Part shown: positions 4,377-58,447 of the stretch, piece by piece
How positions within the stretch are numbered: the first letter of the stretch is position 1
Layout: each line of letters begins with the position of its first letter
Assembly: GCA_951406725.2 (NCBI GenBank)
Contig: OX597815.1
Span: 45,012,001-45,076,000 of the forward strand
Direction of reading: 5' to 3'
DNA: 64,000 nt
Origin: Octopus vulgaris
Taxonomy: Eukaryota
The notes under the pieces: generated by a model
What the model was told of the DNA's origin: nothing
What the model saw: the letters and a program-made list of their open reading frames with translations, nothing else
Databases searched by the model: none
Made by a program: the position numbers and the translations under genes

Positions 4377-4807
4377 CCATAGACAGGATGGAGGGACATA
4401 TATAGTTGTATTATCCGTGTATGGTGACAGAAACAAATGCAAGCACATACACATATGATACAATATATTTGCAGCATGCAGCCATATATCTACACAACTA
4501 ATTGCTACATCTGAGCATGCATGCACATATACATATATATATATATACATGCTCGCACACAAACACACTTACATATGCAAGTATCATACATCGGCACTTA
4601 GTTCAATATATCCTAACTGTGCTACCCAAAAATATTGCACATGCACACACATATGCGTGTCCACTTACAACCCACACATAAGTGTATATACAGGCATACC
4701 TCAGCTTAAGTCGTTTCGATTTAAGTTGTTCTCGATTATACGGCGATTTTCAAAAATAGTATATGGAAAAATAAAAATCAAGTCATTTTACTCGACTTTT
4801 ACGTCTG

Positions 4808-5593
4808 GGATCTTTTCAGTTTGAACGGCAGTTTTTTAAAATAATTTCTATGTAATTAAACACTTTTAAACTTCGTATACTGGTAGAATGTGTTTATAAA
4901 ACATCTTTTTCTCTTGGCTTTCTTGAGAAAATTCTGTAGCTTGTAAGATATTTGTAAGATATTTTCTTCAATTTTGGTAATTTCAACCAGTCAATGACGT
5001 CTATTGAGGTGAAAATATTATCTGCCGTTAAATTTTCTGGCGGTGAAATATGAAAATGCCCCTCGTTTAAGAAACAGATTGGGTTTATTTACATTTCTGA
5101 AAAAAAAAAAGATACCCTTCCCCCCACCCTAACCTAAACCCTAACCCTAACCTTAACCCTAATCCTAACTCAACCCCTAACCCTAACTCTAATCCTAACC
5201 CTAAAACAGATTGAAATGATCGATACTAGGGTCATAATTATGGGTGGACACGAAAGAGGGAACGGTTTTGTTATCCAGCTCTATCTACGAGTGACCCCTC
5301 AGTTTATGGCCACAGGGTATCTTTTTTCTCATAAAAAACAGGGACATTTTCATATGACGCCGCCATAAAATGTTACGGCAGAAATCGTTTTCACCTCAAT
5401 AGACGTCATTGATTGGTTGAAATTGCCGAAATGCAAGAAATTAAAGACCAAATATCTTACAAACTATAGAATTTTCTCAAGAAAGCCAAGAGAAAAAGAT
5501 GTTTTATAAACACATTCTATCAGTATACGAAGTTTAAAATTTTTTAGTTACATAGAAATTATTTTTAAAAATTGCCGTTCAAACCGAAAAGAT
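4808..5593. mobile_element. Long-TIR MITE containing (CCCTAA)n-like repeats, copy 1, nested in the Tigger element
   Basis: Imperfect TIRs of ~230 bp (GGATCTTTTC.GTTTGAACGGCAG...) and CCCTAA-type repeats at ~5125-5203. A highly similar copy lies at 56995-57758. Confidence 0.85.
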
Positions 5594-7030: not shown

Positions 7031-7094
<64 letters not shown>

Positions 7095-7107
7095 TTACAT
7101 ATATATA

Positions 7108-7375
7108 TAAAATACAAAATGGGACAAGAACGCAAAACATCCGGACAACTAGGTGATACAAAAAGGGACAACAAAGCATCCAGATAGACGATACAAAAAA
7201 CAAGGACGGGTCATTCGAAGTCTTTTATCCTCAGTCAAGAACCAGATCATCCTCGCAATTTCGGCTGATTAATCTTGAGATTGCTCCAATCTGGCCAACC
7301 CCGAGGAAAAACCAAACCAAGAGCATTAGATTCCTTGGGAAAAAAAGCATCGAATGTATACGAAAACAAGGACAG
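7108..7375 (-). mobile_element. Non-autonomous repeat family A inserted at (TA)n (PLE-like tail suspected)
   Basis: Reverse complement of 14970-15243. Related fragments at 14388-14463 and 27525-27648 all abut (TA)n. Confidence 0.65.
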
Positions 7376-14494: not shown

Positions 14495-15239
14495 CGGCGT
14501 ACGTACACTTTGTTCTCTTATATGTAAGTACACATTTCACTAAATTTTGTACGACTTTTTCAAATCTTTCTCCCCACTCTCTCTCACATTCCTTTGCCTT
14601 TCTTACTCACTTTGCACTTCAGTGTCCCTGTCCCTCTTTTTTCTCGCCACTCCTTGATTCTTCCGTCTATCTACTGCTACACACTCTCTCTCACTCTATC
14701 TCTCTTCTCCCCTCCTTAATTACTTTGTTCCTCTTTTTCTCTGTCTCCTCTTCTCACGTGACCGTTGGCCGACTGCTAGCCCTTTTGTGTTTAACCGTGG
14801 TCATTGCCACATCGATATTCTTCCCTCTGCGTAAGACTTCATTTCCATACACGCCAGCTGAATTCAATTCGTCCCTAGTCGAAAGATGCCTGTTGTTATG
14901 CCCTGTTATTATTATTATTATTATTGTTTTTTATTGTATTTTTGTATTTATATTTGTGTAACATCGTCTGTTTTTCCATCCTTGTTTCGTATACATTCGA
15001 TGCTTTTTATCCAAGGAATCTAATGCTCTTAGCTTAGTTTTTCCTTGAGGCTGGCCAAATTGGAGCAATCTCAAGATTAATCAGCCGAAATTGCGAGGAT
15101 GATCCGGTTCTTGACGGAAGATAAAAGGCTTCGAATGACCCGTCCGTGTTTTTTGCATCGTCTATCTGGATGTTTTGTTGTCCCCTTTTGTATCACCTAG
15201 TTGTCCGGATGTTTTGCGTTCTTGTCCCATTTTGTATTT

Positions 15240-15243
<4 letters not shown>
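14388..15243 (+). mobile_element. Repeat family A, long copy with a duplicated 3' segment
   Basis: A ~75-bp segment (ggatgttttgttgtcccc...ttttgtatttt) occurs at 14389-14463 and 15168-15243, each followed by (TA)n. Confidence 0.65.
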
Positions 15244-15323
<80 letters not shown>

Positions 15324-23239: not shown

Positions 23240-23470
23240 ACCCAACAACCGCAGAAGGAAATGCCACAGGGTTTGCTCCCTTCTCTCTTAACACAAAATC
23301 ACCCATAGGTAGAATATTCCTTAAATTAATAGATAAGCATTTCACTAGCTCCCATAGGTACGGACCCATTTTCAACAGGCACAGCGTTAGAGTCTCTTTT
23401 AGTTGCGCCCCCAATATCAAGAACATTCTAGTTAGCACTTCTAGGCCACGGGAGGAGGCAGGACCGTAAC
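23240..23470 (+). pseudogene. Penelope-like element ORF fragment (RT-to-endonuclease linker)
   Basis: APFSLNTKSPIGRIFLKLIDKHF..IFNRHSVRVSFSCAPNIKNI resembles the PLE linker motif (PPFS..TNIG+.FL.LIDKHF..IFNR.TVKVSYSC). Confidence 0.8.
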
Positions 23471-27462: not shown

Positions 27463-27525
<63 letters not shown>

Positions 27526-28061
27526 GAAAAATACAAACTGAGACAAGAACGCATAAAAACTAAGAAGACGATACAACAAACACAGACAGGACATTCGAAG
27601 CCCTCAGTCTTCAGTCAAGAACCGGATCATCGTAGTAATTTCGGCTGATATATATATATAACATATTAAATGACAAAGCACCAGATGGTCATGCCACTAA
27701 CGCGTTTTACTATTCATTTGTTTGGTCGAGGTTGAGATCAAAAACGACAACAGGAACAACAAACTAATCTTTGCTTATCTCTGTCGTTTAAAACAACTGC
27801 CCAAAGCTTGCATCTATAGACATATATAATTTCAGCATTATTTTATTTATTGGCGAAATCCAAAATAACCTAGGACTTTACACAATAACAAACTATAACT
27901 CTTGGCTCTGAAAAATTTAACCGATAAGTATTCCGTCTTCTAGTTATAATTTATTATCACAATCCTAAAGACTAACTATACTTTGGAGGTTTGAATCATC
28001 TGACATCACAACATTTAACACACCCAGAATGCGAATGCCTGAACAAGATCAACAGTGACAG

Positions 28062-28429: not shown

Positions 28430-28950
28430 CGTAAGGTACAAAGTATGGTGGGTGATTACACGTGATTGCATATATACGGATCGACAGGAATGTCGATCAG
28501 ACAGAGATGTACGGCTCACAGACAACAGTTGTCCTCCCCACAATATCGCCAGATATATCTCAGTGAACATATTGACAGATGTGCAGAACAACTGCAACCA
28601 CAATTCCTAATCTTCCCAATATATCAATTTGCTATTTGGATCTCAACTAAATAAAGTACGACTAAATAAAGAGGCCTTATTTATCGAAAAATATAAGCCG
28701 GAATTAAATATAAACCCATATTGAAAATTAAAGATTTACCCCAACTATTGTAAGAATAAAATGTAGACCAATATATAAATTACAGATTTACACCCCACTA
28801 TACTGTAGATACCTTGGATACCAATTATTCCCCCGGACAAACAAAACGTCTAATTCAGAAATTCATCCAAAATTCATAATTTGAAAAGCGATAACGAAAC
28901 CGGTTATGTTGGAATAAAAAAAAATTCACAATATTGTATAGTACTTTTCT
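28430..28950 (+). pseudogene. Penelope-like 3' end with GIY-YIG endonuclease remnant (stop at 28724) and 3' tail
   Basis: YGSTGMSIRQRCTAHRQQ..LSEHIDRC..F.IFPIYQ..RLNKEALFIEKYKPELN, followed by the HHR-like relic TTGAAAA..GAAACCGGTT at ~28881-28906. Confidence 0.75.
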
Positions 28951-29022
28951 ATTATGAGTAGTCTAATATATTCTTTAGTCTTTTAAAACAAATCTTTTGT
29001 TTTTCATCATAATTCTTTCCGG

Positions 29023-29130
<108 letters not shown>

Positions 29131-29189: not shown

Positions 29190-29394
29190 TATACAATTAA
29201 GGGCTCCTAAATAAAGATGCCGAGTGCTGGGAACACAAAAGGGGATGAATTTATCGAGAGTGAAAATCAAAAACGTTTACCGAAGTTAAAGTTAAAGTTA
29301 TCGGTAAACGTTTTTGATTTTCACTCTCGATAAATTCATCCCCTTTTGTGTTCCCAGCACTCGGCATCTTTATTTAGGAGCCCTTAATTGTATA
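29190..29394. repeat. Perfect 94-bp inverted repeat with 17-nt spacer
   Basis: 29190-29283 is the exact reverse complement of 29301-29394. The spacer is agttaaagttaaagtta. Confidence 0.95.
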
Positions 29395-29525
29395 ACTACA
29401 TGAATAATATTTTTCTATATGAATAATATTTTTGTCTTATGACTAATTCGTCTTTTGTGCTGGGCACCTGGTAGTAAATAATATTACTACCCTTCTTGTT
29501 TATATGTGTATATATATATATATAC

Positions 29526-29716
29526 TTCCGCCGTAACTGCTAACGGTCTTTCTCCCCCGCCTTTTAAGGCTACTGGACGGCTTTTCCTGCTCTCTCGTCG
29601 TTCACAAAAAATTCAGCGTTTGCAATACTTTTTTCGTTCGGCGTCAACAGCCCTTCTTATCTTGTTCTCCCTGTCCTGTCTTTTACTGTTATATATATTT
29701 TTTTTTACTGTTTATA

Positions 29717-29747
<31 letters not shown>

Positions 29748-30122
29748 TTACTGTCTATATTTTTGTACTGTCGTTACTGTCTCGTTTTTTTACCATTTTT
29801 TACCCCTCTGCGAAAAGATCTCAGAATTTTAATTGATTTGCTTTTCGCAGGAAGGAAAGTTTCTTGTCGAAGATACGTCTCGCTTTTATCCTTCGAAACG
29901 TAGAGTAGATGAAACCTTAGCGACTGAAGAAGGGGTTTTTTCGTTGTTTTGTTGTTTTTAAAAAAATGTCCTGTTCCTTTGGTTTGTGTCTATGTTTTCG
30001 TTTCTCTATGTGTTCGACGTCCCTTTGGTGTCCTGTACTCATATATGCGTGTATATGTACATGTAGAGGTAGGTACGTACATATATGTTTATATATACGC
30101 ATATGTTTTATTTCTTTTATTA
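29526..30122 (+). mobile_element. Repeat family B inserted in (TA)n; second partial copy at 35047-35270
   Basis: Shared 3' part gtagatgaaac.ttagcgactgaagaagggg...gaggtaggtacgtac, and hairpin ctgcgaaaag/cttttcgcag. Confidence 0.7.
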
Positions 30123-30265
30123 ATATATATATATATATATATATCACAATCAAGGAACGGCCATAATAGGCCATTCACCCACTAGAAATAACAGCCAAAG
30201 CTTTAACCGCAAAATAACATTAATTCCGTAAACCAGGAGAAAATTAAAAAAACATTTACCCTGTA

Positions 30266-30372
30266 ATTTCTTATACGATGCACCGTTTCATCTACTGTTT
30301 AATGGTAAACTAACCTGATTAAATTAAATCAAGCCAATCTTCCATAGGCCCTTAGATTCCTCAGTAAGAAAT
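30266..30372 (-). ncRNA. Type I hammerhead ribozyme (array, minus copy 1)
   Basis: Reverse complement of 31308-31414. Confidence 0.88.
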
Positions 30373-30755
30373 AGCCAGAACGGAACAGATATTTTCACGA
30401 GGCATTTCCGTCCCTGCCTCGGCAATATCTGACCTAAAATTTTCAAATCATCGCACTCGCGCCAAATTTATCGGCAGCAAATAAATATAAGCCGCCGATT
30501 CCATTACGGAATCAACCATAAAATTCATAATTAATCAATATAGGGTGGCAAAAACAATTTTGTATAATTTTTTTGTCACCAGCGGCCTAGTGGGAAAAAA
30601 TTAAATAGTCATAGACCATTTATAAGTTCAACATCACAATCAAGGAACGGCCATAATAGGCCATTCACCCACTAGAAATAACAGCCAAAGCTTTAACCGC
30701 AAAATAACATTAATTCCGTAAACCAGGAGAAAATTAAAAAAACATTTACCCTGTA

Positions 30756-30862
30756 ATTTCTTATACGATGCACCGTTTCATCTACTGTTTAATGGTAAAC
30801 TAACCTGATTAAATTAAATCAAGCCAATCTTCCATAGGCCCTTAGATTCCTCAGTAAGAAAT
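30756..30862 (-). ncRNA. Type I hammerhead ribozyme (array, minus copy 2)
   Basis: Reverse complement of 31308-31414. Confidence 0.88.
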
Positions 30863-31307
30863 AGCCAGAACGGAACAGAGTTTACCATTAAACAGTAGAT
30901 GAAACGGTGCATCGTATAAGAAATTACAGGGTAAATGTTTTTTTAATTTTCTCCTGGTTTACGGAATTAATGTTATTTTGCGGTTAAAGCTTTGGCTGTT
31001 ATTTCTAGTGGGTGAATGGCCTATTATGGCCGTTCCTTGATTGTGATGTTGAACTTATAAATGGTCTATGACTATTTAATTCTTTCCCACTAGGCCGCTG
31101 GTGACAAAAAAATTATACAAAATTTTTTTTGCCACCCTATATTGATTAATTATGAATTTTCTGGTTGATTCCGTAATGGAATCGGCGGCTTATATTTATT
31201 TGCTGCCGATAAATTTGGCGCGAGTGCGATGATTTGAAAATTTTAGGTCAGATATTGCCGAGGCAGGGACGGAAATGCCTCGTGAAAATATCTGTTCCGT
31301 TCTGGCT

Positions 31308-31414
31308 ATTTCTTACTGAGGAATCTAAGGGCCTATGGAAGATTGGCTTGATTTAATTTAATCAGGTTAGTTTACCATTAAACAGTAGATGAAACGGTGC
31401 ATCGTATAAGAAAT
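31308..31414 (+). ncRNA. Type I hammerhead ribozyme, predicted cleavage after GUA (A31406)
   Basis: Stem I ATTTCTTA/TAAGAAAT, core CTGAGGA, stem II ATCTA/TAGAT with a long extension, GAAA, stem III ACGG-tgca-TCGT, H17=A. Confidence 0.9.
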
Positions 31415-31798
31415 TACAGGGTAAATGTTCTTTTAATTTTCTCCTGGTTTACGGAATTAATGTTATTTTGCGGTTAAAGCTTTGGCTGTTATTTCTAGTG
31501 GGTGAATGGCCTATTATGGCCGTTCCTTGATTGTTGATGTTGAACTTATAAATGGTCTATGACTATTTAATTTTTTCCCACTAGGCCGCTGGTGACAAAA
31601 AAAATTATACAAAATTTTTTTGCCACCCTATATTGATTAATTATGAATTTTCTGGTTGATTCCGTAATGGAATCGGCGGCTTATATTTATTTGCTGCTGA
31701 TAAATTTGGCGCGAGTGCGATGATTTGAAAATTTTAGGTCAGATATTGCCGAGGCAGGGACGGAAATGCCTCGTGAAAATATCTGTTCCGTTCTGGCT

Positions 31799-31905
31799 AT
31801 TTCTTACTGAGGAATCTAAGGGCCTATGGAAGATTGGCTTGATTTAATTTAATCAGGTTAGTTTACCATTAAACAGTAGATGAAACGGTGCATCGTATAA
31901 GAAAT
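31799..31905 (+). ncRNA. Type I hammerhead ribozyme, cleavage after 31897
   Basis: Same motif as 31308-31414. Confidence 0.9.
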
Positions 31906-32288
31906 TACAGGGTAAATGTTTTTTTAATTTTCTCCTGGTTTACGGAATTAATGTTATTTTGCGGTTAAAGCTTTGGCTGTTATTTCTAGTGGGTGAATGG
32001 CCTATTATGGCCGTTCCTTGATTGTGATGTTGAACTTATAAATGGTCTATGACTATTTAATTTTTTCCCACTAGGCCGCTGGTGACAAAAAAAATTATAC
32101 AAAATTTTTTTGCCACCCTATATTGATTAATTATGAATTTTCTGGTTGATTCCGTAATGGAATCGGCGGCTTATATTTATTTGCTGCCGATAAATTTGGC
32201 GCGAGTGCGATGATTTGAAAATTTTAGGTCAGATATTGCCGAGGCAGGGACGGAAATGCCTCGTGAAAATATCTGTTCCGTTCTGGCT

Positions 32289-32395
32289 ATTTCTTACTGA
32301 GGAATCTAAGGGCCTATGGAAGATTGGCTTGATTTAATTTAATCAGGTTAGTTTACCATTAAACAGTAGATGAAACGGTGCATCGTATAAGAAAT
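32289..32395 (+). ncRNA. Type I hammerhead ribozyme, cleavage after 32387
   Basis: Same motif as 31308-31414. Confidence 0.9.
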
Positions 32396-32778
32396 TACAG
32401 GGTAAATGTTTTTTTAATTTTCTCCTGGTTTACGGAATTAATGTTATTTTGCGGTTAAAGCTTTGGCTGTTATTTCTAGTGGGTGAATGGCCTATTATGG
32501 CCGTTCCTTGATTGTGATGTTGAACTTATAAATGGTCTATGACTATTTAATTTTTTCCCACTAGGCCGCTGGTGACAAAAAAAATTATACAAAATTTTTT
32601 TGCCACCCTATATTGATTAATTATGAATTTTATGGTTGATTCCGTAATGGAATCGGCGGCTTATATTTATTTGCTGCCGATAAATTTGGCGCGAGTGCGA
32701 TGATTTGAAAATTTTAGGTCAGATATTGCCGAGGCAGGGACGGAAATGCCTCGTGAAAATATCTGTTCCGTTCTGGCT

Positions 32779-32885
32779 ATTTCTTACTGAGGAATCTAAG
32801 GGCCTATGGAAGATTGGCTTGATTTAATTTAATCAGGTTAGTTTACCATTAAACAGTAGATGAAACGGTGCATCGTATAAGAAAT
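32779..32885 (+). ncRNA. Type I hammerhead ribozyme, cleavage after 32877
   Basis: Same motif as 31308-31414. Confidence 0.9.
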
Positions 32886-33129
32886 TACAGGGTAAATGTT
32901 TTTTTAATTTTCTCCTGGTTTACGGAATTAATGTTATTTTGCGGTTAAAGCTTTGGCTGTTATTTCTAGTGGGTGAATGGCCTATTATGGCCGTTCCTTG
33001 ATTGTGATGTTGAACTTATAAATGGTCTATGACTATTTAATTTTTTCCCACTAGGCCGCTGGTGACAAAAAAATTATACAAAATTTTTTTTGCCACCCTA
33101 TATTGATTAATTATATATATATATATATA

Positions 33130-33750
33130 TAACAATTAAGGATAAAATCTTAATAAGGAATCTTAACAAGAAATTATCAGGTAGTTAGCGTGAAAACCTC
33201 ATAAGAGAAAAAATCCGAAAATAATTTTTTCACTTGAAAATATTTATTTATATTCTATAGAGGGCATTATTATACATAAATGCCACACGCTAAGAGGGAC
33301 ATAAGTCATTACTACCAAAATTTAACTAATCATACCGAATGCAGCTCTCGAAGCAAGACATTTAAAAAACTGAATTTAGTTCTATATCACCTGTGATTTC
33401 GCAATTAACGTATTAAATACGTCTTTTGTTCATCAGTAGAACAGATTCTGAACACATCATAAATAAACATAACCAACATACCTAGCGAAGCCAAACAGAC
33501 ATCTGCTCCCCTCGGCGAAGCACATGGAAATGTTTATTCATCATATATTCGGTAAATGGTGGGCTTTTTCGAACTGCATGTCGGTAGAAAAAGTTTTTCT
33601 TCGGAATAAATTTAACAATTAAGGATAAAATATTAATAAGGAATCTTAACAAGAAATTATCAGGTATGATTAGTTAAATTTTGGTAGTAATGACTTATGT
33701 CCCGCTTAGCGTGTGGCATTTATGTATAATAATGCCCTCTATACAATCTA
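33130..33750 (-). mobile_element. Second retrozyme-like family, 483-bp period, 1.1 units on - plus an inverted ~85-bp arm
   Basis: 33130-33183 repeats at 33613-33666, and 33663-33750 is the inverse of ~33250-33336. Flanked by (TA)n. Confidence 0.8.
33379..33442 (-). ncRNA. Type I hammerhead ribozyme (family 2; A10.1-C11.1 mismatch)
   Basis: GTTCTA-CTGATGA-ACAA aa GACGTAT tta ATACGTT aa TTGC-GAAA-TCAC ag GTGA-TA-TAGAAC. Confidence 0.85.
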
Positions 33751-34998: not shown

Positions 34999-35050
<52 letters not shown>

Positions 35051-35267
35051 GTTTAGTAGATGAAACTTTAGCGACTGAAGAAGGGGATTTTTCGTTGTGC
35101 TTATTGTCCTGTATCTCTCCTTTTTTTTTTGCCTGTCTTGTTCCTTGGTTTTTCGTCTCTCTATGTGTTCGACGTCTTTTTGGTGTCCTGTACACATATA
35201 TGCGTGTATATGTACATGTAGAGGTAGGTACGTACATATATGTTTATATATATGCATATATTTTATT

Positions 35268-35336
<69 letters not shown>

Positions 35337-50528: not shown

Positions 50529-50714
50529 ATGTATGTATGTATGTATGTATGTATGTGTGTATGTTTACTTTATTACTAATTACTCTCTTCCAAGAACATT
50601 TTCACTCACTCTTAGCTCTTAGCTTCCCATACATTTTACTCATGTGTCTATCAGCGTCATAGACAGAATACTTTCACTTTAGTCTTCCTCAAATCATTCT
50701 GTCGCTATTTACTT

Positions 50715-51252
50715 TCATTTTATTCGTTGCCCACTGTGTGTGTGCGTTTGCGTGTGGTGTAAACCAGACTAAGAAAAGCATTTGACACACACACCAGAAT
50801 GTGAGTTTTCTGTAAATTTTGCTTAATTGGAGTTTAAATTTTAAAAACTGGACCTGGCATGACGCGATGCATTGTACTCTGAAAAATGCTAGGTAAATTG
50901 TAATTGAAGAAATCCTATATTGTAGATTTGTATAACTCCCAAAGGGAGGCAGATAAAATCTGCCTTTTATAATAAGAGATATATATATCTCTTATTATAA
51001 AAGGCAGATTTTATCTGCCTCCCTTTGGGAGTTATACAAATCTACAATATAGGATTTCTTCAATTACAATTTACCTAGCAATTTTAAGAGTACAATGCAT
51101 CGCGTCATGCCAGGTCCAGTTTTTAAAATTTAAACTCCAATTAAGCAAAATTTACAGAAAACTCACATTCTGGTGTGTGTGTCAAATGCTTTTCTTAGTC
51201 TGGTTTACACCACACGCAAACGCACACACACAGTGGGCAACGAATAAAATGA
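50715..51252. repeat. Spacer-less palindrome, 269-bp arms, centred on (AT)5
   Basis: Centre at 50983/50984 with about 2 mismatches between arms. Each arm starts with Helitron-like A|TCTCTTATTATAAAA. Confidence 0.93.
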
Positions 51253-51803
51253 TAGTAATTCACTTACTGTAGTGAGTGATTCTTTCACTCTGCCTCCCAC
51301 TTCCTCTTTCAACACATAGACACGCAAATATATAAATAAAATTGTAAGCTAACGTGCGTGTGTGTGAGTGTGTGTGTGTGCGTGTGTGTGCGCGCGTGTG
51401 TGTGTGAGGGTGCGTGTGTGTGTGTGTGCGTGTGCGTGAGTGTGTGACAGGAAAGTTTTTACGACGAATACATAAGACCAAAGCAGAGAATGTATTCTTT
51501 TATTCGTTCTTTATTCTTCTGCTTTTTCCAGCCATTGGTCTGTGGCCATGCTGGGGCAATGCCTTGAAGAATTGTAGTTTAATGAATCAACTCCAGTTTT
51601 ATTTTTGTAAGCATTGTACTTATTCTATCTGTTTCCTTTGTCAAACCACTAGGTGACAGGGATGTAAACAAACCAACATTCGTTGTCAAGCAGTGGTGGA
51701 GGACAATCACAAGCACAGACACGCACACACACACACATACATGCAGACACATATACACACATACATACATACATACATATATATATGTGTGTGTATATAT
51801 ATA

Positions 51804-52062
51804 TTGCAGCGTGGAAGGTGTTTGTAAGCCATTTAAGAAACACACAAAAACCGTTACATTCACTTCAACATTTAAATTTAATTTGCCAAAATATTTTCCT
51901 CGCTTTCAGACCGCGACCTGTTCACTGACAAAAATATCGTGCTAACAGGTCGCGGTCTCAAAGCGACGAAAATATTTTGGCAAATTAAATTTAAATGTTG
52001 AAGTGAATGTAACGGTTTTTGTGTGTTTCTTAAATGGCTTACAAACACCTTCCACGCTGCAA
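51804..52062. repeat. Inverted repeat, 119-bp arms, 21-nt spacer, next to (TA)n
   Basis: 51804-51922 versus 51944-52062, about 2 mismatches. Confidence 0.92.
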
Positions 52063-52228
52063 CTGTTTTCGTTCCAGCACACGATCTCAGATCAAGTCAC
52101 TTGCTATGCAAGTACATCTCTGTAACTATATATATATTTATATATATATATATATATATGTATATTGGTAAAAACAGTAAGATAACAAAAGAAAGAAAGA
52201 GACCTCAATATTATGTAAATAGAGGAAA

Positions 52229-52638: not shown

Positions 52639-53613
<975 letters not shown>

Positions 53614-56591: not shown

Positions 56592-56994
56592 TGTAGGAGT
56601 GGCTGTGTGGTAAGTAGCTTGTTTATCAACCACATGGCTCCGCGTTCAGTCCCACTACGTGGCACCTTGGGCAATTGTCTTCTACTATAATCTCGGGCCG
56701 ATCAGATCCTTGTGAGTAGATTTGTAACGGAAACTGACAGAAGCCCGTCGTATATATATGTTTGTGTGTTTGTGTGTGTGTGTGCGTGTATGCGTGTGTG
56801 TATGTTTGTGTGTCTGCGTTCCCCCACCCACCCACCATCGCTTGACAACCGATGCTGGTGTGTTCACATCCTCGTAACATAGCGGTTCGGCAAGATAGGT
56901 CGATAGAATAAGTACTAGGCTTACAAAGAATAAGTTCTGGGGTCGATTTGTTCGACTAAAGGCGGTGCATCCAAATGACTGAAGCAAATAAAAG
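56592..56994 (+). mobile_element. SINE family 1, tail interrupted by a MITE
   Basis: Colinear with 37624-38031. Confidence 0.88.
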
Positions 56995-57758
56995 GGATCT
57001 TTTCGGTTTGAACGGCAGTTTTTTAAAAATAATTTCTATGTAACTAAACACTTTTAAACTTCGTATACTGGTAGAATCTGTTTATAAAACATCTTTTTCT
57101 CTTGGCTTTCTTGAGAAAATTCTGTAGCTTGTAAGATATTTGTAAGATATTTTCTTCAATTTTGGAAATTTCAACCAATCAATGACGTCTATTGAGGTGA
57201 AAACATTATCTGCCGTAAAATTTTCTGGCGGTGAAATATGAAAATGTTCCTTGTTTAAGAAACAGATTGGGTTTATTTACATTTCTGAAGAAAAAAAGAT
57301 ACCCTTCTCCCTACCTCTAATCCTAACCCAACCCCTAACCCTAACTCTAACCTTAACCCTAAAACAGATTGAAATGCAATAGATCGATACTAGGGTATAA
57401 TTATGGGTGGACACTAAAGAGGGAACGGTTTTGTTATCTAGCTCTGTTTACGAGTGACCTCTCAGTTTATGGCCACAGGGTATCTTTTTTCTCATGAAAA
57501 ACAAGGACATTTTTGTATGACGCCGCCATAAAATGTTTCGGCAGAAATCGTTTTCACCTTAATAGACGTCATTGATTGGTTGAAATTGCCGAAAAGCAAG
57601 AAATTAAAGACCAAATATCTTAGAAACTATAGAATTTTCTCAAGAAAGCCAAGAGAAAAATATGTATTATAAACACATTCTACTAGTATACGAAGTTAAA
57701 AATTTTTTAGTTACATAGAATTTATTTTAAAAAACTGCCGTTCAAACCGAAAAGATCC
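56995..57758. mobile_element. Long-TIR MITE containing (CCCTAA)n-like repeats, copy 2
   Basis: GGATCTTTTCGG...CCGAAAAGATCC termini. AATAAAAG on both sides is a putative 8-bp TSD. Confidence 0.9.
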
Positions 57759-57850: not shown

Positions 57851-57931
<81 letters not shown>

Positions 57932-57973
57932 CAAAGTGGAGTTGTGGGGTACCGCACGAGTGGAATTATATAT

Positions 57974-58384
57974 GAAAGAAGGTTTGAAAATGCAATTTAA
58001 AAGATGTTTATTTACTTTACCGGTTTCACTCTTTGGAAAAAGATTGTCAAAAGTAACATGTAGAAGTTTGGTTGCGTTAATTATTGGTTGTTGCAAATTG
58101 CTACATTACATATATACAGTCTTTGGTAACAGGGACATGTTAAGGACATAAAAAAGTTCAACAAGTTCCTTAAAATAATGGGCACAAAGGAACTTATTGA
58201 ACTTTTTTATGTCCTTAACATGTCCCTGTTACCAAAGACTGTATATATGTAATGTAGCAATTTGTAACAACCAATAATTAACGCAACCAAACTTCTACAA
58301 GTTTCTTTTGACAATCTTTTTCCAAAGAGTGAAACCGGTAAAGTAAATAAACATCTTTTAAATTGCATTTTCAAACCTTCTTTC
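57974..58384. mobile_element. Head-to-head inverted PLE-like termini (198-bp arms), each with a minimal HHR (58012-58056 -, 58302-58346 +)
   Basis: Arms 57974-58171 and 58187-58384. Motif TTACTT-TTGACAA-TCTTT ttcc AAAGA gt-GAAA-CCGG-TA-AAGTAA. Confidence 0.75.

Positions 58385-58447
<63 letters not shown>

Follow-up and report, generated by a model that had tools for sequence, protein, structure and literature searches.

How does a repeat come to lie head to head with its own inverted copy, with both outer ends on simple (TA)n? The question is raised by a stretch of the Octopus vulgaris genome of 64,000 nucleotides (nt), positions 45,012,001 to 45,076,000 of contig OX597815.1 in assembly GCA_951406725.2. 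This stretch, called the window below, is abundant in TA and TACA microsatellites and holds several inserts whose two arms diverge from an internal junction. One is an array of 490-nt units with a minus arm of 737 nt and a plus arm of 2236 nt, which overlap by 1 nt at position 30879; both outer ends lie on (TA)n. A motif scan found six type I hammerhead ribozyme motifs in the array, two on the minus and four on the plus arm, one per unit, and no stop-to-stop frame of 50 amino acids (aa) was found inside it. An earlier note on this DNA had given the same junction and geometry and had read the inserts as sharing one insertion signature, left by a Penelope-like enzyme that primes cDNA synthesis from both target ends. 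We report that the head-to-head arrangement is genuine and recurs throughout the genome, and that the two 3' ends of each element are different fixed sites and not mirror images. The units, which have the features of retrozymes, were probably pasted into (TA)n by a Penelope-like enzyme with dual priming at these two sites.

Two fixed ends are paired in inverted loci

The 227 contigs of the genome (2.8 Gb) were searched for the 490 family, for two further families with units of 483 and 445 nt, and for F3, a non-tandem family. The 490, 483 and 445 families are dispersed and multi-copy with 1782, 3180 and 768 first-look candidates across many contigs. Arms stop at two sites per unit, namely 169 and 275 in the 490 family, ~96 and ~209 in the 445 family, ~415 and ~538 in the 483 family and ~800 and ~838 in F3. 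We call the upstream site the short end and the downstream site the long end; the distance between them, the tail, is ~106-120 nt in the retrozymes and ~38 nt in F3.

The top-scoring matches of the four families together gave 141 loci (40, 40, 32 and 29 per family), of which 78 were inverted. Both ends fell on a site at 61 of these, with 60 short-plus-long pairs, one long-plus-long and no short-plus-short pair (P 3e-17 against even odds), while the remaining 17 had an end off-site. Orientation was far from random. (TA)n adjoined 140 of the 156 inverted-arm ends, as expected from the target preference that the earlier note had proposed. Patterns composed of an end plus TA had 199, 67 and 404 matches, compared with 2, 0 and 0 for reversed controls; exact matches to the short end of the 490 family numbered 404. 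The motif CCTT(A/G)ATTGT precedes one end in three otherwise unrelated families.

Because these first loci were top-scoring matches, a second sample of 60 loci was drawn by the short end alone. An inverted partner was present in 47 of 56 scorable loci; 37 partners ended at the long site, none at the short site, four were off-site and six ran off the locus. The rest of this end-selected sample comprised nine loci without a partner and four that were unscorable. Taken together, the shared signature of diverging arms on (TA)n stands genome-wide, but its two ends differ.

Arm haplotypes, junctions and the RNA template

At shared variant sites of the three retrozyme families, mismatches between the arms of a locus amounted to 0/181, 8/335 and 2/209, compared with rates of 0.37, 0.33 and 0.31 between loci. 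Rare alleles were common to both arms 44 times, where about one case was expected, and 79 private sites differed between arms. Both arms of a locus thus share one source haplotype, a signal that F3 does not show. In 17 of 37 end-selected pairs neither arm was contained in the other, and seven pairs had no common sequence at all.

Inserted bases were present at 39 of the 78 junctions. The microhomology noticed earlier at single junctions was confirmed in the remainder, as 29 of 39 insertion-free junctions had an overlap of at least 2 nt, a count in which automatic junction extension overcalls a few overlaps. This junction anatomy resembles polymerase-theta end joining.

The arms end 108-256 nt downstream of the predicted ribozyme cut, which lies after unit position 38 in the 490 family, and arms of this family traverse up to 10 predicted cut sites. 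In the end-selected sample 5' starts coincided with the cut in 4 of 51 cases for the 445 family (4.6 expected) and in 8 of 52 for the 490 family (4.4 expected, P 0.07). Since the ends lie past the cut, cuts are crossed and starts are not clearly enriched there, the template was likely an uncut multimer or circle. Unit variants repeat inside some arrays (L043, L053, L056 and L068), which speaks against copying purely by rolling around a monomer circle, unless units were exchanged later. Two candidate signals were set aside. A concentration of 5' starts of the 445 family at the cut (18/54) was a query bias and was absent from the end-selected sample, and a negative correlation of arm lengths likely reflected selection for full units.

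Retrozyme units and Penelope-like coding families

The 490, 483 and 445 units contain no open reading frame (ORF) for a reverse transcriptase (RT) or GIY-YIG endonuclease. Each tandem unit spans a few hundred bases and contains a type I hammerhead; a long terminal repeat (LTR) and protein-coding capacity are lacking. On these sequence features the units appear to be members of the metazoan non-LTR retrozyme class and not autonomous Penelope-like elements. The units keep the hammerhead core and stems; the lowest-energy fold of a unit lacked a complete hammerhead. A scan of the window with Rfam had no hammerhead family among the matches listed (150 of 210), the top rows being microsatellite-driven miRNA matches under their thresholds.

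An open RT/GIY-YIG frame occurs elsewhere in the genome, outside the retrozyme units. Locus L231 (3442-5883, minus strand) holds an open 814-aa frame of RT plus GIY-YIG, from a young family with copies 92-98% alike. Pfam recognized RVT_1 (E 3e-7) and, weakly, GIY-YIG (E 0.05). A CxxC linker in the frame, as described in the text of PMC8557442, suggests that the family is of the Neptune type. Among 20 loci of this family all 11 head-to-head pairs were short plus long by manual count, so that the pairing rule extends to coding elements. The tail was 43 nt, and five of the 11 pairs, again counted manually, were not nested.

The window contains remnants of two coding families, and the earlier note had named both as pointing to a candidate helper lineage. 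At 28430 a broken GIY-YIG relic is followed by a 3' untranslated region (UTR); 28475-28651 matches the endonuclease part of the 814-aa frame with 65% identity (37/57), and a degenerate hammerhead was recognized by eye at ~28875-28909. The relic near 23240 comes from a second family that looks old. A Pfam search of the two short relics gave no match. A role of the relics as helpers was not borne out, for they represent two different coding families and share no unit sequence with the retrozymes.

Elsewhere (L192-L200, L251-L280) copies of the old family have their RT and endonuclease separated by long inserts rich in asparagine and serine; similar inserts are described in the text of PMC3846280.

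Proposed mechanism and its alternatives

From the paired ends and the common haplotype we infer a sequence of nicking, priming, cDNA extension and joining. A Penelope-like RT/GIY-YIG enzyme acting in trans would nick both strands of (TA)n. Of the two DNA ends, one would start cDNA synthesis from the long (downstream) site and the other from the short (upstream) site, which lie 106-120 nt apart in the unit; both would use RNA from the same source, assisted by a few matching AT bases. Each cDNA would then extend over an independent distance, past several predicted ribozyme cuts on the multimeric or circular RNA, before microhomology-mediated end joining unites the two cDNA ends, frequently with small inserts. 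We regard this scheme as probable.

Twin priming from both target ends, as proposed in the earlier note, is thereby retained as the best model, though not in the manner of L1. In L1 twin priming the poly(A) end serves as one site, whereas the second is met by chance. Both processes would have two target ends priming, head-to-head arms and junction microhomology; here, in contrast, both sites are fixed, internal and paired and the arms often overlap, so that the process is not twin priming of the L1 type.

More tentatively, the findings can be joined into a single picture, which we consider possible but somewhat short of probable. A dimer of a Penelope-like RT would hold one circular or multimeric retrozyme RNA with one fixed priming site per DNA end, and its subunits would copy past each other. 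A single event would produce array, inversion and one-sided tail. The tail would represent the spacing of the active sites on the RNA and CCTT(A/G)ATTGT a shared helper signal.

Several observations weigh against the dual-priming scheme. The first samples were top-scoring matches, and 7 of the 60 end-selected loci were already among them. F3 was without a haplotype signal (4/16 compared with 0.375). Gene conversion between arms might produce shared haplotypes, one molecule leaves the same pattern as two transcripts of a single source locus, and deletion at the palindrome centre or later loss of units might mimic non-nested arms. Three weak cases bear on the register: in one of them both sites fell within a single unit, in the other two they fell in separate units. 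In comparisons of retrozyme units with 90 loci of the two coding families the best match was 23 nt, and coding sequence upstream was absent at all 30 loci that terminate in the common end motif. The tail of the coding family measures 43 nt compared with ~110 nt in the retrozymes. Finally, the text of PMC11167929 reports that no strand dependence of the start sites was seen in vitro.

To this list belongs an excess of tight hairpins, with arm starts at most 10 nt apart in 10 of 47 pairs (2.1 expected). They would be explained by fold-back, in which a single RNA-templated cDNA primes its own copying into the inverted arm, with resolution at the other site; PMC3846280 puts forward a model of self-priming. 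Yet tight pairs fit fold-back and two cDNAs reaching one RNA end equally. Fold-back also accounts for the shared haplotype, and in the tandem families the shorter arm could be nested in the longer in 49 of 61 cases. The non-nested end-selected pairs, above all those without common sequence, are difficult to reconcile with it. Moreover, at 14 of 26 loci of the 490 family the short-end arm extends further 5' than the long-end arm permits, so a fold-back copy must run in either direction yet stop at the other site. We consider fold-back unlikely. Insertion of one unit per locus, with arrays and inversions arising later by local duplication or recombination, is in line with the local amplification suggested in the text of 10.64898/2026.07.22.740005 and with the unit variants repeating within the four arrays named above, be it by later or inherited duplication. 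It leaves unexplained why two fixed, different ends flank multi-unit arms and why non-tandem coding elements follow the same end rule, which makes it very improbable.

Capture of RNAs at fragile (TA)n by the RT of a long interspersed nuclear element (LINE) or by break repair appears scarcely more credible. It is compatible with microhomology and inserts, which generic end joining would also leave, and no Penelope-like helper could be linked by sequence among the two coding families and the end-motif loci. On the other hand, the ends are two fixed internal sites without a poly(A) tail, and a coding Penelope-like family has the same paired ends. Library or assembly fold-back, which might have been suspected because the 445 and 490 arms of the window are free of substitutions between arms over the compared stretches, would mirror ends and flanks. 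Here a fixed tail separates the ends, flanks differ and the arms differ at the private sites given above. Furthermore, minus-to-plus joints of the 490 family were present in contigs of three other runs, in 5 of the 15 joints listed (of 178), with sides of 22-31 letters; one run might be the source of the assembly. For junction 33663 no bridging contig was among the matches listed (32 of 655 pieces, four runs), where contigs can show presence only; RNA data sets were absent from the holders listed. Because of the unequal fixed ends, the different flanks and the non-overlapping arms, a mirror artefact is excluded as the general cause, and the chance that artefacts explain the inversions is negligible.

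Relation to known systems

Inverted copies, one-sided tails and a TA bias are already known for Penelope-like elements. In the literature searched, mainly openly accessible main texts, PMC8557442 and PMC3846280 describe a truncated copy in inverted orientation together with a tail of 30-40 bp that is often confined to one end, PMC2377424 has the same layout in Drosophila, and PMC4209133 treats the hammerheads of these elements. The octopus inserts likewise have an adjoining inverted 5'-truncated copy, a one-sided tail, a hammerhead upstream of the ends, a (TA)n target and partial tandems. Unlike Penelope insertion units they are without an ORF and their retrozyme tails measure ~106-120 instead of 30-40 nt. 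In these texts the tail is optional or often one-sided, whereas near-strict short-plus-long pairing is counted here only. In this literature we found no report of strict short-plus-long pairing, of 106-120-base tails or of this footprint on retrozyme arrays; the novelty may be affected by figure S9 of PMC7229834, figure S2 of PMC11167929 and the PMC8557442 files. The text of PMC8557442 leaves the origin of tandem and inverted Penelope structures undefined.

The closest biochemical parallel comes from Anolis Poseidon (PMC11167929), where in vitro both strands were nicked and extended, two internal start sites bound the tail, a dimer was predicted and cleavage was dispensable. As in the retrozymes, the two starts lie downstream of the hammerhead and the target is AT-rich. 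The Poseidon starts have no homology to the target, in contrast to the octopus ends, which overlap TA by a few bases, each insertion using one site per end.

With metazoan non-LTR retrozymes, as far as described in the text of PMC7229834, the units share the non-coding, AT-rich tandem structure with one type I hammerhead each and the dispersal. At 445-490 nt they are at or above the range of 150-450 given there, and that main text never uses the word 'inverted', unlike the inverted arrays seen here. Self-cleavage and circular RNA are putative in our case. A sequence link of the units to a pseudo-LTR (pLTR) was not found in the 90 loci of the two coding families.

Penelope-like elements have been proposed as movers of retrozymes (PMC7229834, 10.64898/2026.07.22.740005), a proposal that so far rests on their co-occurrence and on likeness of sequence. 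The paired ends connect retrozyme arrays with the Penelope mechanism by their footprint. From them it also follows that, in the in vitro system already available, a single insertion should use one start site per DNA end. The 490 family is a ready substrate because it is young (copies 96-99% identical) and its sites are mapped.

Inserts and other features of the window

The coordinates of the features are collected in Table 1.

Table 1. Retrozyme, Penelope-like and associated features of the window
Feature	Position	Strand	Remark
Coding relic of second, old Penelope-like family, asparagine-rich linker	23269..23442	+	Hydra-like by resemblance only
3' end of coding Penelope-like element: broken GIY-YIG relic, 3' UTR	28430..29025	+	ends on (TA)n 29026-29128
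445-family retrozyme, short-end arm	29190..29283	-	family comparison
445-family retrozyme, long-end arm	29291..29503 (right end approximate)	+	one-sided tail 29395-~29503
(TA)n flank	30123..30144		repeat listing
490-family array, short-end arm, stops at unit position 169	30143..30879	-	left limit 30143/6; hammerheads 30862-30756, 30372-30266
490-family array, long-end arm, 4.6 units, stops at unit position 275	30879..33114	+	tail 33009-33114
Hammerheads of 490-array plus arm	31308-31414, 31799-31905, 32289-32395, 32779-32885	+	motif scan
(TA)n separating 490 and 483 inserts	33112..33131		repeat listing
483-family retrozyme, long-end arm, 1.1 units	33132..33666	-	hammerhead core 33436, predicted cut after 33385
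483-family retrozyme, short-end arm	33663..33747 (right end approximate)	+	then TA-like run to 33780
Inverted repeat 51804-52062 plus one-sided 63-nt extension	51804..52125		passenger of larger repeat
F3 (non-tandem family), long-end arm	57931..58189	-	~38-nt tail at 57931-57973
F3, short-end arm	58190..58386	+	degenerate hammerhead near 58310-58345

The inverted arms of the 483 element were seen as previously noted, with a hammerhead on the minus arm, and its junction overlap is 4 nt by BLAST or 5 nt by exact extension. The element holds one 63-aa stop-to-stop frame; more than 1.5 units are rare in this family. The inverted repeat at 29190-29394, whose geometry had been recognized but whose sense strand had been left unassigned, represents the two arms of the 445-nt hammerhead tandem family, and thus its sense strand is now known. 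Its ends are unequal, with the right arm extending to ~29503, and seven bases are inserted at the junction (29284-29290). A reading of this repeat as a miniature inverted-repeat transposable element (MITE) was rejected by variable junctions, unequal ends and tandem relatives.

For the element previously placed at 57974-58384 the diverging arms are correct, but it begins at 57931 because the left arm bears the tail. Its hammerhead is degenerate, being recognized by eye and missed by the motif scan. No RT/GIY-YIG ORF was found in the upstream ~1.2 kb in F3. Long F3 copies (L128, L130, L131 300-1100) have a CA-rich, apparently non-coding 5' part without an ORF. The inverted repeat at 51804-52062 had been listed beside the other inserts, yet both its flanks are shared by 20 of 20 copies; it goes back to a single old event, now a passenger of a larger repeat, and does not count as an independent case. 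Its asymmetric extension and shared flanks also led us to reject a MITE reading.

An insertion hotspot at 29-34 kb had been suspected from the consecutive inserts there. Another studied family lay within 250 nt at 3 of 109 other loci. The hotspot is unsupported: the dense cluster of the window, though unusual, was singled out in hindsight.

A ~474-nt relative of the 490 family with 72% identity (L248 3880-4413, L281-L310) keeps the short-end site. In its hammerhead stems bases are changed in a compensatory manner that preserves pairing. At L248, where a copy lies next to a coding element, TA separates the two and the copy is an insert of its own. Between the 445 and 490 inserts of the window (29525-30122), the segment 29896-30144 resembles 35047-35300 (83%) and is very abundant in contigs of other sequencing runs. 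Further (TA)n-ended repeats with hammerhead-like cores are located at 7060-7372, 14979-15286, 27466-27649, 34867 and 45066.

Two palindromes were also seen. That at 50709-51258 is near-perfect (550 bp, 98.9%) and centred on a short (TA)n, a geometry opposite to that of the inserts. The other, of 975 bp at 52639-53613, has central (TA)n runs and a nested inverted piece at 53091-53153, and could be a (TA)n fold-back or an assembly artefact. Finally, 4807-5593 and 56994-57758 are two 90%-alike copies of an element whose terminal inverted repeats measure ~260 bp and whose interior holds CCCTAA-like repeats.

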